From an uncultured Spirochaetales bacterium (GTDB lineage: Bacteria > Spirochaetota > Spirochaetia > JAFGXN01), in the NCBI GenBank assembly GCA_949289575.1, contig CASEOG010000002.1, positions 160,254-224,253 on the forward strand: a DNA stretch of 64,000 bases, read 5' to 3'. Below the pieces are notes generated by a model, which saw only the letters and a list, made by a program, of their open reading frames with translations, searched no databases and was not told where the DNA came from. Below, in pieces: positions 35,626 to 46,280 of the stretch. Made by a program: the position numbers and the translations under genes. How positions within the stretch are numbered: the first letter of the stretch is position 1; every line of letters starts with the position of its first letter.

Positions 35626-38082
35626 TTATCGTTCCGAAAAAAGAATTTCCGGATTGCCGTTGAGCCGGACCGATTCGCCCCGCTGCAGTTCGATATCGAT
35701 TGTTTTGCCGGCGTAGCGAACCGTTAACGGTTTTCCGGCATCGGAACGGATAACGGCTTCCGTCAGTTGCCCCTGTTCCCACGATGCGGATACGGTAAAC
35801 CCGCCGGCCGCTTTAAAACCGGAAAAGCGGCCGTTTGCGATAGCCGAAGGCAGCGCCGGCAGCAGATGAATCTCTCCGTTACCGCTTTGCAGCAGCCATT
35901 CGATAAAGGCGGAGACAAGTCCGAAGTTACCGTCAATCTGAAACGGAGGGTGGGCATCCCACAAATTTTTATAAAAGCCGCCGCCGGAAAGGGCAATTTC
36001 CGACCGCGAAGTCGGCTTGACAAAATTCCTCAGCAGCCGGTACGAGTGGTCGCCGTTCCCCAGACGGGCATGGAAATTCATTTTCCAGGCCATCGACCAC
36101 CCGGTGCCCTTATCGCCTCGGGCTTTTAGCGTAACGGCAGCCGCTTTTGCCAACTCGGGTGTCGTAATCGGAGAAATTTGAGTTCCCGGATGTAGGGCGT
36201 ACAAATGAGAAATATGGCGGTGTTTGTTTGTCTTCGAATCGATGTCTTTGGCCCACTCCTGGAGCTGTCCCCACCGTCCGATTTTCGGTTGCGGAATCCG
36301 TTCCAAACAGGATCGCCAATCCTCCCGCTCCCGCTCGTCGGTTTCGAGAATTTCGGAAGCGGAAACGACGGTTTTCAGGATTTCGTGTGCGATTTGGAAA
36401 TCCATTGACGCGCCGGCCGACACGGTGCCGTGCTCGGGAGAATAAGAAGGAGAGGAGATCAGATGACCGGTTTCGTCTTCAATCAGCCAATCGACCCAAA
36501 ATTGCGCGGCGCCTTTGATCGTCGGATAGATCTCTTTCAGAAAAGCGGTATCCTGCGTATACAGGTAGTGATCCCATAAATGGCGGCAGAGCCAGGCTGC
36601 CGCTCCGGGAAAATGGCCCCAGACAATTCCCCAGCCGGGCTGCGTTTCCCCAAAAGGGTTGTTGCTTGTATGGCAGACCCATCCGTCGGTGCCGTAATAG
36701 TGACGGGCGGTGATTTCTCCCGGTTGAACCAGTGTCGGAATGTAGTCGAGCAGCGGTTTGTGGACCTCTCCCAGATCGAGAGGCTCGGCGGGCCAGTAGG
36801 CCATTTGAAGGTTGATATTGGTATGGTAGTCGCTGCTCCACGGCGGATCGGTGTAGGCATTCCACAATCCCTGTAAGTTGAGCGGCAGAGAGCCTTCACG
36901 GGAAGAGGAAATCAGCAGATATTTTCCGTAATTAAAAAGCAGTTCCAAAAACAGCGGGTCTCTGCTGACGGCAAAACGGCGCAAGCGTTTATCGGTCGGA
37001 ATATCCGTTTTCGAATCGGATCGGGTCGAAAAACGGAGAGTTGTTCTGTCAAAGAGATTCGTATAGTCGCGCAGGTGATTCTCGAGTATTCGGTCGATCC
37101 CTTTTCGGCAGGCTTCACGGGCCAATTTGTCGGCCGTTTTGAGAGGTGACCGACGGCTTTTGTACAAAGGGTATTCGTTGATGTAGTCTGTTGCCGCGGA
37201 GAAAAAGAGAACGGCACTGTCGGCGCCCCGAACAGTCACCGATTCGCCGTCGGCAGCGATCGTACCGTTGACGGCTTTTATGTAAATGACGGCGGCGTAT
37301 TTCATGCCGTTGTTGTTCAGGATTCCTTCGACTGTCATTCGTGCCGTCCGGCTGTCGATACAGACTGTCGATACCGTTTCCCTGCGTCCTCTCCCGACGT
37401 TCGGATTTAAGCAGGGGAATTCGTTGCGATATCGGTCGTAATAGTTGTTCGTATCCGTTACCGGTTCCCACTGCAATCCGAATGTGATTTTCCGTTCGGT
37501 GTCTGCCGTCAGTGCGAAGAGCATTGCTTTATCGGGGTAAGAGGCAAATGCCGTTCGGGTATAATGTGTCCCGTCCGAGCTGAAAGTAACGGAATGAAGA
37601 GCGACGGATGTATCCAATTTTCGTATATAATTTCGGGGGTTTTCTCCGAGTTCGGGGAAATGAAGATCGAGGGTTCCGAGAGGCTGATATGCTCCTTTTC
37701 CTGTTCCGTTACCCGTCAGATACTTTTGCGAAAGACGATGAGCTTCTTCGTAGCGGCCTTCGGCGACGGCTTTTCTGATTTCCGGTAAGGCAAAGGCGCC
37801 TTTACCGGGATCGGGTTTGCCGTACCCGGTCCATTCTCCCGGCCCTCCTTCCCAGAGTGTCTTTTCGTTCAGAAGAATCCGTTCATGGGAAACTCCTCCG
37901 AAAAGAGAAGCGCCCATCCATCCGTTTCCGATCGGAAGAGCTTCCTGTTCCCAATTTTGTGCCGGTTTTTTGTAGAAAAGGACTTTATCGGCCGATTCGG
38001 CTGCAGAGGCATGGGGAGAAAAGAAAAGCGTTCCTGTGAGAATCGTCCCTATGAGAATGACCGGAGAGAGCGAAGAGTTCAT
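35626..38082 (-). CDS. GH95 alpha-1,2-L-fucosidase
   Basis: Signal peptide; WEQEALPIGNG, YGKYLLISSSR, NLQGLWN, SDYHTNINLQMAYW, SPEHG, HRHISHLY, GWSMAWK and HPPFQIDGNFG motifs. Confidence 0.93.
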   Translation of the reverse strand: MNSSLSPVILIGTILTGTLFFSPHASAAESADKVLFYKKPAQNWEQEALPIGNGWMGASLFGGVSHERILLNEKTLWEGGPGEWTGYGKPDPGKGAFALPEIRKAVAEGRYEEAHRLSQKYLTGNGTGKGAYQPLGTLDLHFPELGENPRNYIRKLDTSVALHSVTFSSDGTHYTRTAFASYPDKAMLFALTADTERKITFGLQWEPVTDTNNYYDRYRNEFPCLNPNVGRGRRETVSTVCIDSRTARMTVEGILNNNGMKYAAVIYIKAVNGTIAADGESVTVRGADSAVLFFSAATDYINEYPLYKSRRSPLKTADKLAREACRKGIDRILENHLRDYTNLFDRTTLRFSTRSDSKTDIPTDKRLRRFAVSRDPLFLELLFNYGKYLLISSSREGSLPLNLQGLWNAYTDPPWSSDYHTNINLQMAYWPAEPLDLGEVHKPLLDYIPTLVQPGEITARHYYGTDGWVCHTSNNPFGETQPGWGIVWGHFPGAAAWLCRHLWDHYLYTQDTAFLKEIYPTIKGAAQFWVDWLIEDETGHLISSPSYSPEHGTVSAGASMDFQIAHEILKTVVSASEILETDEREREDWRSCLERIPQPKIGRWGQLQEWAKDIDSKTNKHRHISHLYALHPGTQISPITTPELAKAAAVTLKARGDKGTGWSMAWKMNFHARLGNGDHSYRLLRNFVKPTSRSEIALSGGGFYKNLWDAHPPFQIDGNFGLVSAFIEWLLQSGNGEIHLLPALPSAIANGRFSGFKAAGGFTVSASWEQGQLTEAVIRSDAGKPLTVRYAGKTIDIELQRGESVRLNGNPEILFSER

Positions 38083-39941
38083 CGGGTTTCGATTTCTTCA
38101 ATCCAAAATGCCGTCATCCAGGTCTGTTTCGGTGAATTTTTGACCGCTTTGATTTCGATAACGTTGACTCCTTTTTTCAGCTGTATACGGACCGGTTGCC
38201 GGCGCCAGTAGAGTTCTTCGGCTGTCCACGGGACCTCCTGTACCGGGTGATCCCATGTTTGGACAATGTCGTGGCGGTAGGCGCCCGGCTGCTGCCACTG
38301 CGGCGGTGCGACGGGTTCTCCGTTTAACGTAATCGTACTGCCGTAGCGGTCCCATTTGCCCTTCGGAGGAACTCCGCCGTAAAAACGGTGCGCACGCAGC
38401 GGGACGTCGAAACCGGCATGCAGCAGAACGTCCCGGTCCGTATCGCTGACGATTTCCGTCCGGCAGAAAGCGGCCTGCCGTTTTTTTGCGTTCGGGAAGT
38501 AGCTGTCCAGGAGCAGCGAGACACCCCGTCCCTCCACCGTTTCACCGGACGGTCCCGTCAGTTGCCAAACCGTGTCGCACTGTTTTTCGTAAATGAATTC
38601 GGCGCCGACATCCCCGAAATAAAGATCTTTATGCGCAATCAGTCTGTTTTCGTATTCGGAAAAGGCTCGGAAGGCGGCCGTGCCTTTCGGGGGAATCATT
38701 TGTCTGTATTTTCGGCTTCCCGTCGGATTGCCGTTCCAAAAGATTTCGGCCGCCGTGATTCCCGCTGCGTATACCGGATTATTCAGTAAAACCTCGCGCT
38801 GGTCGGCAACAGCCACATCGTTCCAGTTACAGAGAATCGCACCCATGTCCGATTCCGATCCTTCGGGAACACCGCACGGCTGTTTGAAGTAGACAGCCTG
38901 AACGGCATTAAAATAATCAAAAGTATTTGTATAGAGACCGCTCGAATCGATATTCCGGTAACCGGGCTGTTTGGCGTTCTCAAACCATGTGTGCTCGATC
39001 ATATCGTTCGATGAGGGGATTCCGGGGTTCCAAACCATTCCGGTTCGGCCGTTTTCCTTCAGTTTTGCCTCGACCAGAGGCATGAATTCTTTGATAACGG
39101 GAGCCCGAACTTCGTCGGCACCGATATGAATAATCGGAGCCGTTTCGACCGGGATTTCATCGCAGAATTCCTGAATCAGATCGAGACAGATTTGGGTTCC
39201 TTTTTGCGAACCCATCGAAAAACCGAATGCTTTCGGAAAGAATTTGCTGTGTCCCGGCATATCCAGTTCCACAATCACCCGGACGCCCAGATCGTTGCTG
39301 AAAGAAATCAGATCACGGATTTCGTCGTAAGTATAAAATTCGGTACTGCGGTACATCGTTTTCGGATCGTTGAGAACCGGATATTTTTTACATTCGACCC
39401 GCCAGCCCGGATTGTCGGTGATGTGCCAGTGGAATGTGTTGAGTTTGTAAGCGGCCAGACGGCGGATTTGTTCTTTCAGATAGGGAATCGTCTGAAAATT
39501 TCTTCCGGTATCATGGTGAAAGCCGCGGACAGAAAAGGCGGGAAAATCTTCTATTATGCAGGCCGGCACCGGTTTTCGTCCGTTTTCGCTCAGTTGATTC
39601 AGTGTCAAACCCGCATAGCGGAGGCCCCGTTCGTCATTGGCCCTGATTTCGACGATACCGTTTTCGATTTTCAGAGAATAAGCTTCCGGTGAGCGGCTGA
39701 AAGCAAGCGGTTCCCTCTTTTTGATGATTTGACACTGTTCGAGTGGCCATTCGCCTTCTTTCCAGACAACATGACGCGGAAACGGAATCAGTGCACGGGG
39801 TGCCGCTTCGGCGGCCGGTAAATCAATCGGCGGAACATATTCTTTTGTTTCCGTATCCGATACCGTCGGCGGAATATCGACAGAAAGGCACCCGATAAAA
39901 AATAATCCCGTAAACAGTAATTTGCAAATTGTTTGACTCAT
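38079..39941 (-). CDS. GH20 beta-N-acetylhexosaminidase lipoprotein
   Basis: Lipobox LFFIGC; RGFHHDTGRNF, FHWHITDNPGWR, ELDMPGH and the catalytic HIGADEV. ATGA overlap with the GH95 start. Confidence 0.92.
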   Translation of the reverse strand: MSQTICKLLFTGLFFIGCLSVDIPPTVSDTETKEYVPPIDLPAAEAAPRALIPFPRHVVWKEGEWPLEQCQIIKKREPLAFSRSPEAYSLKIENGIVEIRANDERGLRYAGLTLNQLSENGRKPVPACIIEDFPAFSVRGFHHDTGRNFQTIPYLKEQIRRLAAYKLNTFHWHITDNPGWRVECKKYPVLNDPKTMYRSTEFYTYDEIRDLISFSNDLGVRVIVELDMPGHSKFFPKAFGFSMGSQKGTQICLDLIQEFCDEIPVETAPIIHIGADEVRAPVIKEFMPLVEAKLKENGRTGMVWNPGIPSSNDMIEHTWFENAKQPGYRNIDSSGLYTNTFDYFNAVQAVYFKQPCGVPEGSESDMGAILCNWNDVAVADQREVLLNNPVYAAGITAAEIFWNGNPTGSRKYRQMIPPKGTAAFRAFSEYENRLIAHKDLYFGDVGAEFIYEKQCDTVWQLTGPSGETVEGRGVSLLLDSYFPNAKKRQAAFCRTEIVSDTDRDVLLHAGFDVPLRAHRFYGGVPPKGKWDRYGSTITLNGEPVAPPQWQQPGAYRHDIVQTWDHPVQEVPWTAEELYWRRQPVRIQLKKGVNVIEIKAVKNSPKQTWMTAFWIEEIETR

Positions 39942-39976
39942 ACATCCCATTATACGGAAATTTTTCGTAAATACAA
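39942..39976 (-). promoter_or_regulatory. Promoter of GH20-GH95, probably leaderless
   Basis: TTGTAT (39971-39976), 16 bp spacer, TATAAT (39949-39954), 7 nt, ATG at 39941. Confidence 0.65.
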
Positions 39977-40976: not shown

Positions 40977-41001
40977 AAAAAAGGAGCGCCGAGGGCGCTC
41001 C
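40977..41001 (-). terminator. Intrinsic terminator ending the SCP2/aminotransferase/transketolase/VOC operon
   Basis: GGAGCGCC-ctc-GGCGCTCC followed by T6 on the minus strand. Confidence 0.85.
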
Positions 41002-41007
41002 CGAGTT

Positions 41008-41523
41008 TTACTTGTAATAGTCTTTGAATTTTCCTTTCCGCATGAAGAAGCCGATCAATCTGCTCATGTATTTAATCGGAAAATAGTTGGCGTGCAAATC
41101 CATCAGTTCGATCAGGTTCCCGTCCGGATCGCGAAAGAAAAACCAGTCGGCTCCGTCGTCTCTTTGAGGTTCGTTTAAAATTTCGACATCGGATCGCTCG
41201 CTCAATTTCTTATACCATTTCCCGATATTTTTGACATCGAGCGTAAAATGATGTGTTCCCGGACGGTTCCAGCAGTGTTCGAACGGAGCGGTTTCCGAAA
41301 ATTCGAAAATTTCGATTAACCCGCCTCTCGGCCCGAGCAAAAATCCGAATCGGACGGACATTCCGTCGGGGAGGTTGTACAGTTTTTTCATGCGGCTCAT
41401 TCGTTCCGCATCCAGACCGCCTTTCGAAATCAGAGAAAATCCGAAAACATCGCGATACCATCGGACGGCTTTGTTGAAATCTTTGACGGTTATGCCGACA
41501 TGGTTGAATCCTCTGGCTTTCAT
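41008..41523 (-). CDS. VOC (glyoxalase/methylmalonyl-CoA epimerase) family metalloenzyme
   Basis: FNHVGITV, LIEIFE, GTHHFTL and FRDPDGNLIEL motifs; probable metal ligands H8, E71, H92 and E139. Confidence 0.92.
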   Translation of the reverse strand: MKARGFNHVGITVKDFNKAVRWYRDVFGFSLISKGGLDAERMSRMKKLYNLPDGMSVRFGFLLGPRGGLIEIFEFSETAPFEHCWNRPGTHHFTLDVKNIGKWYKKLSERSDVEILNEPQRDDGADWFFFRDPDGNLIELMDLHANYFPIKYMSRLIGFFMRKGKFKDYYK

Positions 41524-41532
41524 TGAGTCCTC

Positions 41533-42339
41533 CTATTTTACCAGGCTTCCCACAAGCAGCATGTAGTCGCCCAGCTGGGCACCGAATTCGGGTCCGCCGA
41601 CCATAACCAGTCTTTGCTGAATGGTCGCCTCGATCATGTCGTCCGTTTCCTGCAGAATTCCCAATGCGCTTTTCGGCGAGTCGAATTTCATTGTAAAGAA
41701 GGGCATGCTTTTTGTGTATTGACCTCTTCGGGCTTTTGTCCGGCCTTTTTTGACACGGAGATAAGCCGACAGCTCCGGTTCTCCTTCGACAGCCCATGCG
41801 TAAATCCGGTCGGGACTGAGAGCCGCCCACGCTGCCACATCGGGATGTCCCAGTTTGTTCAGAATACTGATTCCGCGTGACAGAAGATAAAACATACACT
41901 TGACCAGCAGCTTTTGGTCATCCTCTTTTTTGGGAGCTGTTTTGGCGCCGAGAAGTCCCGACATTGTCAAGAGCAGCTTCATAAAATTCAGAAAAACGGA
42001 GAAATGTTTCAAAGCGCCTTTCATCTTCGGAAGCGGAAATAATTTTCCTTTGAAGAAGCCGCACAGATGCTCGGGTGATTTAAATTCCAGTTCGACATCG
42101 GGAGTCTCTTCGGAAACCCCTTTTTTCGGTGTACAGGTGCCGTTTTCGAAAATATAGTGAATCGCCATCTTTCCGTCGGGAGTTTTGCAGCTGATTTGGG
42201 CGACCGCTTTTTTCGCCTGCCAGCCCTTCTGCAATGCCGGACGGTCTTCCAGAATGGTTTTCAGAAGAGGGCAAACGGCATAGAGGAAGAGATGGGTCGA
42301 AAAAAGCGTTTCCTGTTCTTTTGTAATCGCAGTTGCCAT
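41533..42339 (-). CDS. Hypothetical protein with tandem SCP2-like (lipid-binding) domains
   Basis: F..G...........PDVELEFKSPEH...F.GK..P.P pattern and a second similar half; visible paralogy with 45525-46280. Confidence 0.55.
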   Translation of the reverse strand: MATAITKEQETLFSTHLFLYAVCPLLKTILEDRPALQKGWQAKKAVAQISCKTPDGKMAIHYIFENGTCTPKKGVSEETPDVELEFKSPEHLCGFFKGKLFPLPKMKGALKHFSVFLNFMKLLLTMSGLLGAKTAPKKEDDQKLLVKCMFYLLSRGISILNKLGHPDVAAWAALSPDRIYAWAVEGEPELSAYLRVKKGRTKARRGQYTKSMPFFTMKFDSPKSALGILQETDDMIEATIQQRLVMVGGPEFGAQLGDYMLLVGSLVK

Positions 42340-42348
42340 TCCGTCCTC

Positions 42349-43356
42349 CTAGAAATCGTCGTCGTCCCAGTCGTTGTCTTCTTCGATCTGAACGCCCATG
42401 ATTTCGTGAGCTGTTTTGACAATACCGTTCGAGTCGTATCCGTATTCGGACATCAAATCCTCGTGGAGTCCGATAATGGAGTAGGTGTCGGGAACTCCCA
42501 ATTTTCTCATGACACAGGCTTTACCCAGTTCGGTGACGGTTTCGGCTACGGCGCTTCCCAATCCGCCGATAATGTTATGGTCTTCGACGGTAATGATGCG
42601 TTTTGTATCGATGACCGCTTTTTCAATGGCTTCCTTATCGATCGGTTTAATTGTATGCATGTTCAAAACACGGGCACGGATACCGTCGGCTTCCAGTTCT
42701 TTGGCGGCCGCAACGGCGCGGGCAACACAGGCGCCGCAGGCAATGATGGTCAGGTCGGTTCCCTCTGCCATCTGTACCGCTTTCCCCAATTGAAATCCGT
42801 AATCGGTACTTTTGTAGATCGGCATATCGTAACCGCGGTTGATACGGATGTAAAAAGGACCGTCGTTTTCGTAGGCGGCAATAACCGCATTGGCCGTTTC
42901 CATTCCGTCGGCCGGAACAATCACGCGGCAGTTGGCCATCGTTCTCATGATGCCGATATCTTCCGTACAGTGGTGCGTGCTGCCTGCCTGACCGAACGAG
43001 AGACCGGCGTGGGTCGCAATGACCTTTACATTCATATTCTGATAGCAGATGTCGGTGTGAAACTGATCCAGGGCTCTCATCGAGGCGAAAATCGCAAAAG
43101 TGGAAGCAAACGGAATCAGACCCGCTTCGGCCATTCCCGCTGCAACTCCCATCATATTCTGTTCGGCAATACCGAGGTTGAAAATCCGGTCGGGGAAGTC
43201 TTTTGCCAAAGCTCCGATTTTGGTCGATTTGGCAAGGTCGGCAGACAGACCGACAACTCTTTTATCCTGTGCCGCCAAATCGCAAAGCACTTTTCCGTAA
43301 TATTCCGCGGTCGACATTTTCTCCGCGTCAAGCATTGTATAGTTTAAGTTAGCCAT
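42349..43356 (-). CDS. Transketolase family C-terminal subunit (pyrimidine-binding plus C domain)
   Basis: SADLAKST, GIAEQNM, THAG...G..GSTH..ED, PFYIRINR, HTIKPID and VEDHNIIGGLGSAVAE motifs. Confidence 0.95.
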   Translation of the reverse strand: MANLNYTMLDAEKMSTAEYYGKVLCDLAAQDKRVVGLSADLAKSTKIGALAKDFPDRIFNLGIAEQNMMGVAAGMAEAGLIPFASTFAIFASMRALDQFHTDICYQNMNVKVIATHAGLSFGQAGSTHHCTEDIGIMRTMANCRVIVPADGMETANAVIAAYENDGPFYIRINRGYDMPIYKSTDYGFQLGKAVQMAEGTDLTIIACGACVARAVAAAKELEADGIRARVLNMHTIKPIDKEAIEKAVIDTKRIITVEDHNIIGGLGSAVAETVTELGKACVMRKLGVPDTYSIIGLHEDLMSEYGYDSNGIVKTAHEIMGVQIEEDNDWDDDDF

Positions 43357-43366
43357 CCGTTTCCTC

Positions 43367-44218
43367 CTAGTTTTTCAATCGGCTGTCGTGATATTCGTCA
43401 ATCTGCTTTTTGTACCGTTCGCCGGTTTCGGCATTGACGCTGGCGTAGTGATACTGGTAGTTGTCCTGAATATCGGCAACTCCGCAGCCTTTAAATGTAT
43501 CGGCGATAATGGCTACCGGTTTGTCTTTTGCGGCAAGAGCGTATTCGATCGCATCGGCAAGCGCATACATATCGTGTCCGTCGACGACTTTGACATCAAA
43601 TCCGAAGGCGGTCCATTTATCCGCAAACGGTTCCAGGTTCATGACATCTTCGGTGCGTCCGTCAATCATACATTTGTTGCGGTCGATGATTGTAATGACG
43701 TTTGTGGCTTTGTAATGGGCAATTGCCATGGCAGCTTCCCATACCGATCCTTCGTCGCATTCTCCGTCTCCGAGCAGACAGTAGGTTTTAAAGTTTTTCT
43801 CCTGCAGACGTCCGCCGAGAGCCATGCCGAGGGCAATCGAAAGCCCGTGTCCGAGCGAACCTGTGGAGGCATCCAATCCGACCACTTTGTTTCTGTCCAG
43901 ATGCATACCCAATTTGCTGAAAGTGTGGTTGTAGGTTTTCAGCATTTCTTTATCGAAGAATCCTTTGTCGGCCAGAACCGGGGCAAAGCCGACGCCGATA
44001 TGTCCCTTGCTGAGGATGAACCGGTCTCTCTCTTCCCATCGGGGATTGGCGACATCGATATTCATGTATTTGTAATACAGAATTGTCAGAATATCGGTTG
44101 CGCTCAGGGCGCCGCCGATATGGCCTCCGTTTGCCCACATAACCGTGTCGATTGTCAGTTTTCGTAATTCCCTTGCTTTGTTTTCGAGAGCAAGGTATTC
44201 TTCTTTAGTCAGTCCCAT
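43367..44218 (-). CDS. Transketolase family N-terminal (ThDP-binding) subunit
   Basis: GGHIGG, RDRFILSKGH, TGSLGHGLS and the ThDP motif GDGE-x-EGSVWEA...DRN. Confidence 0.95.
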   Translation of the reverse strand: MGLTKEEYLALENKARELRKLTIDTVMWANGGHIGGALSATDILTILYYKYMNIDVANPRWEERDRFILSKGHIGVGFAPVLADKGFFDKEMLKTYNHTFSKLGMHLDRNKVVGLDASTGSLGHGLSIALGMALGGRLQEKNFKTYCLLGDGECDEGSVWEAAMAIAHYKATNVITIIDRNKCMIDGRTEDVMNLEPFADKWTAFGFDVKVVDGHDMYALADAIEYALAAKDKPVAIIADTFKGCGVADIQDNYQYHYASVNAETGERYKKQIDEYHDSRLKN

Positions 44219-44251: not shown

Positions 44252-45514
44252 TCAGTTAACTTTGTCGGGATGCAGTTTGGCGACAGCCGCAAACGCTTCG
44301 TCCGCCACTTCGATCGTTTTTTTGATGTCGGCATCCGTCAGAGAGGCGTTCATGAAGTGGTTGTGGTGGCTGACCAGAAAAACTCCGCGTTTGACACACT
44401 CTGCACAGAAATCCTGCATCATTTCCGTTGTCGGGTCGTTGGTAATCCGCATGAAAGGCATCGATTCCACACCCGAGAACTTCATATCGATTCCGTGAGC
44501 ATGGCCGGCGTCGATCATGCCGGAAGCGAATTTTTTTCCTTTCTCGATCAGCAGGTTGGCAACATCGATTCTTTTCATTTCGTTGATACAGGCAATGGCG
44601 GCGGCCATCGGAACGGCACTCGACCAGTAACTGCCTGTAAAAAAGACGGAGCCGGCAGCCGATTTCAGGCTGTCGATACCGACGACGGCCGAAATATTGT
44701 AGCCGTTTGCCAATGCTTTGCAGTAGCAGGCCAGATCGGGTTTGAATCCGAAATATTTGGCGCTTCCTTCGATGTGCAGCCGGAATCCGCAACGGACATC
44801 GTCCACAATTAATACGATTCCGTTTCGGGTACAAATTTCGCGGATTTTCTGCCAGTATCCCGGAACGGGGAGTGCGTTATCCGCAAAAATCCGGTGATCG
44901 TACGGTGTGGCAATAAAACAGGCAATCGAATCTTTGTTTTCGGCAACCGTTTTTTCGAAAGCTTCGGCGTCGTTCCAGGGAATTACGATTACATCCTGTA
45001 AATCGGCTTTTGTAATACCGTTGGCACCTTCGGCCTGTGTCCAGGGGACCACTCCGTGGTAACCGCCCTGAACCCGGACAATTTTGCTCCGGCCGGTTGC
45101 GGCTTTGGCTGTCAGAACAGCAAACGAGGTGGCATCGCCTCCGTTTTTCAGAAAGAAAGCCCAATCGGCTATTTCGATTGTGTCGCACAGCAACTCGGCC
45201 AAATCGACCTGAACCCGTGCCGGCAGGGCCATACAGTTTCCTTTTTTCAGCTGCTCATTGGCCGCTTTATCGACAATTTCATTGTTGTATCCCAAAATAT
45301 TCGGTCCGTAAGCGCACATGTAGTCGATATATTTGTTTCCGTCGATGCTCCAGAAGTAGGAGTCTTTCACACGATCGACATAAAAAGGGAAGTCGCTTGC
45401 GGGAATAAACTGTGACTGAACAGGCCCCAGATGGCCGGGAATTCCTGTCGGGATATATTTGACTGCTTTTTTAAACAGTTCCAGTGATTTTGTGTTGGAA
45501 TAAAACTCTTTCAT
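44252..45514 (-). CDS. Class III PLP aminotransferase, FumI/GSA-aminomutase-like
   Basis: YIDYMCAYGPNILGY, ADWAFFLKNGGDATS, YHG..PW, ATPYDH, VDDVRCGFR, CKALANGY (PLP lysine) and FTGSYWSSAVPMAAA motifs. Confidence 0.9.
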   Translation of the reverse strand: MKEFYSNTKSLELFKKAVKYIPTGIPGHLGPVQSQFIPASDFPFYVDRVKDSYFWSIDGNKYIDYMCAYGPNILGYNNEIVDKAANEQLKKGNCMALPARVQVDLAELLCDTIEIADWAFFLKNGGDATSFAVLTAKAATGRSKIVRVQGGYHGVVPWTQAEGANGITKADLQDVIVIPWNDAEAFEKTVAENKDSIACFIATPYDHRIFADNALPVPGYWQKIREICTRNGIVLIVDDVRCGFRLHIEGSAKYFGFKPDLACYCKALANGYNISAVVGIDSLKSAAGSVFFTGSYWSSAVPMAAAIACINEMKRIDVANLLIEKGKKFASGMIDAGHAHGIDMKFSGVESMPFMRITNDPTTEMMQDFCAECVKRGVFLVSHHNHFMNASLTDADIKKTIEVADEAFAAVAKLHPDKVN

Positions 45515-45524
45515 GCCGTTCTCC

Positions 45525-46280
45525 TTATGCTAAATATCCGCCGACCAGTTCCAGAATCGGATTCATATACTCGACCATCGGAATGAATCCCTTCATCAGC
45601 AGATCTCCCGTTGCCAGAGCAACGTAAGTATCTGTTTTTCTGGAAAGAATGCCCTGTGCCGCTCCGAGGTCCTTAAAAACAAGTCGTGCATTCGATTTTT
45701 CGGCAAAACCTTTGTATGCCGTCAGATGTCCGTTTTTGACATCGATATACAGACCGATTTCCGTGCCGATTGAAGCCTGTATGATGCCGTTCGGAATGTG
45801 TTTCGCGTTTTGAATTCCTTTCGGGTCGTGGTTTCCGATTTGAGCCAGTGACGAAAAGGCGGTGTAGAATGTCATTTCGGTATTCATGGCAAAATAACCG
45901 GGGTCCGACAAAAGACTCTCTGTCGGTTTCAGGTAATACGACAACCGGTCCGCCAGTTTTGTAAACGGTCCCGTCAGAAAACCGATACGGGTCAGTCCTT
46001 TGAGCGGAATGGGATTGGCTTTCCCGTCAATCATTTTATTGAAATGTTCGGGAGAAGTAAAAAATAAGAGAATGTGTGACGGATGCGAACCCTCTTTCAT
46101 TTCCGCCTGTCCGTTTTTAAAAGACAGGTTTCCGTTCGGTCCGTTTTTGACCTTGAACTGGATGGAGAGATTCTTCCCCGCAACGATTTTTCTGCACTCT
46201 TCGTCGCGATTAACCAGGAACTCGATGTTACGCAAGACGCCGAAAAGATTGCAGTATGCCAGTACTTTCTGGTTTTTCAT
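45525..46280 (-). CDS. Hypothetical protein with tandem SCP2-like (lipid-binding) domains
   Basis: QFKVKNG...LSFKNG......G......LFFTSPEHFNKMIDGKANPIPLKG, and a second half ending VALATGDLLMKG; GAGGAG SD. Confidence 0.6.
   Translation of the reverse strand: MKNQKVLAYCNLFGVLRNIEFLVNRDEECRKIVAGKNLSIQFKVKNGPNGNLSFKNGQAEMKEGSHPSHILLFFTSPEHFNKMIDGKANPIPLKGLTRIGFLTGPFTKLADRLSYYLKPTESLLSDPGYFAMNTEMTFYTAFSSLAQIGNHDPKGIQNAKHIPNGIIQASIGTEIGLYIDVKNGHLTAYKGFAEKSNARLVFKDLGAAQGILSRKTDTYVALATGDLLMKGFIPMVEYMNPILELVGGYLA

Follow-up and report, generated by a model that had tools for sequence, protein, structure and literature searches.

The window analysed here, a stretch of 64,000 nucleotides from an uncultured Spirochaetales bacterium, contains a minus-strand operon in which a small gene of the VOC superfamily follows a class III aminotransferase and a split transketolase (TK). 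The locus raises the question of what a VOC protein does behind a transketolase. A preliminary description proposed that it does for a lipid what ribulose-5-phosphate 3-epimerase (RPE) does in the pentose phosphate pathway, inverting C3 of a ketone so that transketolase can cleave it.

The operon and its partner genes

The genes lie on the minus strand in the order SCP2a, class III aminotransferase, TK-N, TK-C, SCP2b and VOC, with the following features.

45525-46280, minus strand: SCP2a, an SCP2-domain protein (PF02036, E 9.5e-6); it precedes the aminotransferase in most loci
44252-45514, minus strand: class III aminotransferase; the closest solved structure is FumI aminopentol aminotransferase (6hbs)
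43367-44218, minus strand: split transketolase N subunit (TK-N), with the equivalents of H26, H66, H100 and H261 intact
42349-43356, minus strand: split transketolase C subunit (TK-C); the D469 equivalent is A124 in 26/26 aligned loci
41533-42339, minus strand: SCP2b, an SCP2-fold protein, probably tandem; it follows TK-C in the cassettes examined
41529-41534, minus strand: AGGAGG ribosome-binding site of the VOC gene, overlapping the stop codon of SCP2b
41008-41523, minus strand: VOC-fold metalloprotein of 171 aa, candidate accessory alpha-ketol (C3) epimerase/isomerase
40982-41002, minus strand: intrinsic-terminator-like hairpin with a T-tail (9 pairs, 7 of them G-C), just past the VOC stop

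The overlap between ribosome-binding site and stop codon makes translational coupling of VOC likely. Because the terminator-like hairpin directly follows the VOC stop, VOC is the last gene of the operon here, as the preliminary description had it. This does not extend to a general rule, since an FMN/FeS ene-reductase gene follows VOC in six loci, often together with TetR.

The aminotransferase matches FumI with an E value of 4e-90, the next best match being HemL at 2e-46. In TK-C the equivalent of R358 is gone in most aligned loci, while those of H461 and H473 are kept. The split enzyme is the sole transketolase of the source genome, which is 97.8% complete; despite this altered enzyme, the genome has an RPE gene (C4:63680). 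SCP2b has no Pfam match, and its model resembles SCP2 and alkylsulfatase structures. A complex prediction of VOC with SCP2b scored 0.00, which carries no weight either way.

Genes for a GH20 hexosaminidase and a GH95 fucosidase lie near the operon (window 35626-39950, minus strand) and in close relatives, and in two loci (L259/L260) a sulfatase joins them. Their products could strip glycans from glycosphingolipids or mucin, and they are not conserved with the cassette elsewhere. Elsewhere in the genome (L265:2552-7448, on G000:C2 upstream of the window), another class III aminotransferase gene is accompanied by TetR and by an FMN/FeS reductase, which may supply the ene-reductase absent from the present operon.

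Fold, predicted metal site and relatives of the VOC protein

The open reading frame matches PF00903 in a Pfam search (E 5e-22) and is the only gene of the source genome to do so. Its AlphaFold model (pLDDT 96) has the VOC fold, and the paired beta-alpha-beta-beta-beta units, the Pfam match and the structure matches agree in placing it in the superfamily. Against 1ss4 the model gives a Foldseek E value of 6e-11 and a Z score of 15.4. Its closest structural neighbours are VOC proteins of uncharacterised function, a small dioxygenase and, at about 20% identity, GloA; searching the PDB and ESM Atlas by sequence and by fold returned generic or uncharacterised VOC proteins only. The predicted metal site and the C-terminal extension are as follows.

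41500-41502, minus strand: H8, predicted metal ligand, in register with E. coli GloA H5
41311-41313, minus strand: E71, predicted metal ligand and candidate acid-base, in motif register with GloA E56
41248-41250, minus strand: H92, predicted metal ligand, aligned with GloA H74
41107-41109, minus strand: E139, predicted metal ligand and candidate acid-base, aligned with GloA E122
41014-41094, minus strand: C-terminal amphipathic basic helices, residues 144-170 (DSSP and alignment; hydrophobic moment up to 0.7)

The four ligands had been described as intact; their positions are correct, and each is invariant in 59 homologs, as are T12, F75 and W85. They occupy the four canonical strand positions of a metal-dependent VOC protein in the same register as in GloA. 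Four-ligand H/E/H/E sites with two carboxylates occur in VOC isomerases and epimerases, and the ligand set in itself gives no prediction of reaction. Small VOC dioxygenases of the L-DOPA and homogentisate type are among the fold neighbours (9u42, 6on1); in contrast to their 2-His-1-carboxylate triad with an open oxygen site, the present protein has an invariant fourth ligand, E71, and its hosts appear to be mainly anaerobic.

The glyoxalase I profile TIGR00068 gives 38.5 bits against a cut-off of 120, and NF050074 gives 23.5 against 165. Like E. coli GloA (1f9z), the protein has H/E/H/E ligands in register and a similar fold (Z 13.8), and GloA chemistry likewise passes through an enediolate. 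GloA Arg9 and Asn60, which bind glutathione, lie four residues past the first His and first Glu ligands; these positions are T12 and F75 in VOC. MAFFT displaced the block around N60, whose register we therefore took from the motif. The protein further differs from GloA in an extra helix (39-49) and in its C-terminal helices. No gamma-glutamylcysteine ligase (PF04262, PF04107) was matched in the 97.8% complete genome, where the search controls were positive, nor was a methylglyoxal synthase found; apparent matches to the latter are, by length and sequence, two CarB-sized proteins and a PurH-type domain. Methylmalonyl-CoA epimerase (MMCE) shares the VOC fold and a four-ligand metal site and inverts an alpha carbon by two-base chemistry. 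However, the MMCE profile TIGR03081 scores 36.5 bits against a cut-off of 114.95, the MMCE-specific motifs are missing, and no mutase lies in the neighbourhood. A tree places the protein far from both GloA and MMCE on a long separate branch, and with its W85-N86 motif and C-terminal helical extension it is a new, uncharacterised VOC subfamily.

A metagenome search divides this family into an operon-linked clade and a sister clade about 40% identical to it. Of the sister-clade loci, 27 have 3 kb or more of sequence upstream; a GMC oxidoreductase is found in 23 of these and a Gfo/Idh/MocA reductase in 19, and some sister-clade loci carry a ROK kinase. On metagenome contigs (L253:5439-9424, L255:5475-9427, L005:7432-10597), the conserved operon order Gfo/Idh/MocA, GMC oxidoreductase, VOC, sometimes with a ROK kinase, looks like an uncharacterised oxidise-epimerise-reduce sugar pathway. 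In both contexts VOC comes after a ketone-forming enzyme whose substrate is a polyol or an aminopolyol, and next to a ketol-consuming one. This fits an alpha-ketol epimerase or isomerase, and it suits an osone isomerase too. The C-terminal helices, missing in GloA and MMCE, are common to the GMC-linked sister clade; they are therefore no evidence for a lipid substrate, and we dropped the idea that the amphipathic helix is a lipid adaptation.

Distribution, stereochemistry and substrate

The VOC clade is present in 18 of 58 genomes with a TK-SCP2b cassette, one of which breaks off where its contig ends, and had no genome-wide match in the other 40 (69%). It is lacking, among others, from the isolate Eubacterium coprostanoligenes and from a closed spirochaete genome of 4.9 Mb (G310), and among spirochaete genomes at least 90% complete it occurs in 13 of 30. 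Where it is present, it comes right after SCP2b (18/18 positive genomes), 18 of the 19 rows of the clade are operon-linked, and in one locus (L243) it stays with TK-SCP2b though the aminotransferase is absent from that locus. A quick IQ-TREE analysis of TK-C plus SCP2b, midpoint rooted, requires three changes, for which one gain followed by two losses is the best reading; the losses fall in a gut Clostridia clade and in G165.

The catalytic residues of the transketolase are identical in cassettes with and without VOC. Scanning the transketolase and the aminotransferase, we found only three positions that covary with VOC (TK-N 26, TK-N 103 and TK-C 294); they are hydrophobic or peripheral, none is catalytic, and a locus without VOC (L238) has the VOC-type residue at 103 and 294. 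Beside the full cassettes that lack VOC no substitute epimerase recurs, an extended-SDR gene appearing in three loci only. An obligatory RPE-like role is thus not supported, given the 40 VOC-less genomes with the same transketolase catalytic residues. Since the gene is missing from two thirds of the operons, it looks like an accessory to the core, a helper rather than a required step.

Other arrangements of these gene families also occur. SCP2a and the aminotransferase form a two-gene unit without transketolase in many gut Clostridia and some Actinomycetota (L011, L012, L013, L019, L021, L023, L025, L027, L030, L031, L034, L036, L037, L040-L042). A short, different VOC protein directly follows a FumI-like aminotransferase at two loci with no transketolase nearby (L048:10248-10613, L053:10238-10609), which suggests that this aminotransferase family has acquired VOC partners independently. 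Four TK-SCP2b loci without an aminotransferase carry a Zn alcohol dehydrogenase (L228, L236, L239, L240), perhaps an alternative entry by oxidation of a long-chain polyol.

The stereochemical argument for an epimerase was that D-erythro-sphinganine and D-ribo-phytosphingosine would yield a 3R, ribulose-like ketone on transamination, whereas transketolase donors of the xylulose type are 3S, and CIP analysis bears this out. Ten wild-type split transketolases retained (S)-selectivity (PMC13663882), and together with the CIP assignment this makes a stereochemical mismatch a real possibility. Against a strict need for 3S, E. coli transketolase gives only 58% ee (S) with propanal, D469Y or H26Y inverts this selectivity, and D469A favours non-hydroxylated aldehydes (PMC3657141). 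The stereoselectivity of transketolase on such aldehydes is modest, and one substitution can invert it; D469 is already replaced in the cassette enzyme, and therefore the 3S requirement may not hold. Enolisation of alpha-ketols and of PLP ketimines can, moreover, proceed with no enzyme dedicated to it.

As for the substrate, the operon probably breaks down sphingosine-like lipids. We lean towards a sphingoid-like compound because of the FumI-like aminotransferase, the two SCP2-like proteins, the D469A/R358A-type transketolase and two ceramidases. FumI, a catabolic enzyme, uses pyruvate to remove the C2 amino group of HFB1, a sphinganine analogue, giving a 2-keto-3-hydroxy lipid (PMC3136697), and the steroid-17,20-desmolase DesAB, a split transketolase linked to steroid side-chain cleavage, is proposed to cut a lipid ketol side chain (PMC3735941). 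The source genome encodes two neutral ceramidases, both full-length at about 900 aa and with N-termini that resemble signal peptides (G000:C5:184395-186029 and C3:134418-136064; L263, L264). Neutral ceramidases are rare in the class of this 1.95-Mb spirochaete, and none was found in 51 genomes of the neighbouring family f2.

A strong neutral ceramidase match occurs in 13/18 VOC-positive against 7/40 VOC-negative genomes, a comparison between related, non-independent genomes in which 11 of the 18 positives belong to one family. The ene-reductase, which could handle 2-hexadecenal from sphingosine, occurs only after VOC-positive cassettes among the loci examined. Given this relatedness, both associations count as leads, not as tests. 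One way to reconcile the observations is that VOC may open the core to D-erythro bases freed from ceramide.

Two further genes touch on lipid metabolism. In one spirochaete family a plasmalogen-synthase-like gene of 1400 aa, with two BcrAD/BadFG domains and DUF2229, lies beside VOC (L242:3535-7746, also L099 and L106), a possible link between fatty aldehydes and ether lipids. The sole clear BioF/SPT-like gene of the source genome (L266:3065-4006, on G000:C7) has an apparent in-frame internal deletion that joins its GSRL and TLSK motifs, and judged by its sequence is probably non-functional.

Candidate roles and known systems

Most likely the enzyme inverts or rearranges a hydroxy-ketone. From what is directly established for the protein, namely sequence, fold, conservation, synteny and distribution, we infer substrate, metal, reaction and direction, and arrive, as the best reading, at an accessory alpha-ketol epimerase acting on a transaminated lipid, to which we give a probability of roughly 0.35. 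Secreted ceramidases would liberate sphingoid bases, and the FumI-like aminotransferase would convert the 2-amino-1,3-diol to a 1,3-dihydroxy-2-one of 3R configuration. A divalent metal on VOC would bind the C2 carbonyl and C3 hydroxyl oxygens of this ketol, one glutamate taking the C3 proton and the other reprotonating the opposite face, so that 3R and 3S would equilibrate. The transketolase would then cut its preferred epimer into a fatty aldehyde and a C2 unit. As an accessory, VOC would increase the flux or add D-erythro bases to the substrates used; cassettes lacking it might cope through a relaxed transketolase, through slow spontaneous or PLP-assisted enolisation, or by using other substrates. 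What survives of the RPE-like proposal is thus a candidate C3 epimerase that is not an ordinary glyoxalase I, whose clade is tied to TK-SCP2 and whose ketol context and precedent in ValD fit.

A metabolite-repair role is unlikely. A glutathione-independent, glyoxalase-like isomerase would here turn alpha-dicarbonyl by-products of the pathway into 2-hydroxy acids. Its targets would be a long-chain 2-oxo-alkanal, arising from the ketodiol by enediol elimination, or glyoxal derived from glycolaldehyde that has been released. The accessory, losable distribution fits, the ligand set is that of GloA, and the GMC oxidases beside the sister clade could produce osones. The genome's sole transketolase lacks acceptor-binding residues, and free glycolaldehyde may therefore be released. 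However, neither glyoxalase II nor a thiol-synthesis gene recurs nearby, and the replaced glutathione-binding residues and the ligase result also count against repair. Spontaneous formation of glyoxal requires oxygen, and the cassette hosts appear to be mostly anaerobes.

The same metal-enediol chemistry and the same context would serve a ketol isomerase that shifts the carbonyl, converting a 3-keto-1,2-diol or an aldose form to the 2-keto-1,3-diol donor of transketolase, to rescue rearranged intermediates or to admit 3-keto lipids, perhaps chiefly for unsaturated sphingosine. The restriction of the ene-reductase to VOC-positive cassettes among the loci examined suits this reading, and the Zn alcohol dehydrogenase loci point to other ketol entries; yet those dehydrogenase-type loci are without VOC, and transamination at C2 already yields the correct regioisomer. 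We consider it quite improbable.

We hold in similarly low regard the possibility that cassette and VOC act on another hydrophobic ketol or amino-alcohol, such as a steroid side chain or a different amino-lipid. In its favour, the split transketolase DesAB has a link to the cleavage of steroid side chains (PMC3735941), ceramidase matches are missing from half of the cassette genomes, and one species with the cassette is cholesterol-reducing. The FumI-like aminotransferase speaks against it, the substrate of FumI being a sphinganine analogue, and C17 of corticoids offers no C-H to epimerise.

It is very unlikely that the pathway runs in the biosynthetic direction, with transketolase joining a C2 unit to a fatty aldehyde (3S), VOC inverting the product to 3R and the aminotransferase forming a D-erythro amino-diol without serine palmitoyltransferase. 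This would retain the epimerase chemistry, every step is reversible, and the deletion in the one clear BioF/SPT-like gene and the plasmalogen-synthase-like gene adjoining VOC in one lineage are in keeping with it. The neighbours nevertheless point to catabolism, with TetR at 18 loci, aldehyde:ferredoxin oxidoreductase at 4, alanine dehydrogenase at L001, and the ene-reductase; two ceramidases are exported in the source genome, and FumI is catabolic (PMC3136697).

We find it extremely improbable that VOC is an ordinary glutathione-dependent glyoxalase I and a bystander gene, one of the outcomes that the preliminary description named as refuting it. In favour, its best NCBIfam match, though weak, is TIGR00068, and it is the sole PF00903 gene of the genome. 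Against it, the TIGR00068 score is far below the cut-off, T12 and F75 replace Arg9 and Asn60, neither a GshA-type ligase nor a methylglyoxal synthase was found, the tree sets the protein apart, and its synteny with the cassette is strict.

If the accessory epimerase reading is true, the VOC superfamily gains a lipid reaction, and it becomes clear how enzymes of a 3S-selective class cope with host lipids that are 3R; VOC also becomes a marker of cassettes that use host sphingolipids and a biocatalysis tool for inverting transketolase-made ketodiols. More doubtful is the full claim that it is the first lipid ketol C3-epimerase, making ceramide-derived D-erythro bases cleavable by transketolase and completing an anaerobe route of sphingoid-base breakdown that needs neither a kinase nor oxygen; which stereoisomer a cassette can use would then depend on whether it has VOC. 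Cassettes with VOC and their natural counterparts lacking it lend themselves to a direct test, and an assay would also bear on the sister clade, itself uncharacterised, that neighbours GMC and Gfo/Idh/MocA oxidoreductases. What is new lies mainly in the five-gene core, to which VOC is an accessory; in the open-access literature we found no description of an aminotransferase plus transketolase route for sphingoid bases.

The known systems each resemble a part of this operon. FumI parallels the step proposed for the aminotransferase, deamination of a sphinganine analogue at C2 (PMC3136697), and DesAB parallels the cassette transketolase as a split enzyme proposed for lipid ketol side-chain cleavage (PMC3735941); neither SCP2 partners nor a VOC protein are described for these systems in the two papers. 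For its part, RPE, like other ketose 3-epimerases, performs the C3 inversion of a ketose that feeds transketolase, through a metal-stabilised enediolate. These enzymes are non-homologous TIM-barrels, and the genome has its own RPE elsewhere; RPE is the standard partner of transketolase, whereas VOC is missing from 69% of the cassettes. The substrate of FumI has no C1 hydroxyl and is 3S, and would therefore need no epimerase. CetB is a VOC-family 2-epi-5-epi-valiolone epimerase. ValD likewise is a VOC epimerase of a cyclitol ketone, 2-epi-5-epi-valiolone, as cited in PMC7081202 and PMC12041759, and the two offer the best functional precedent, an inversion within the VOC superfamily of a carbinol carbon alpha to a ketone. 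ValD differs in being a large protein with a soluble substrate in aminocyclitol biosynthesis, and we liken it to VOC by chemistry and not by sequence. Taken together, ketol epimerase chemistry has precedent in ValD and the ketose 3-epimerases, and a lipid substrate would be new.
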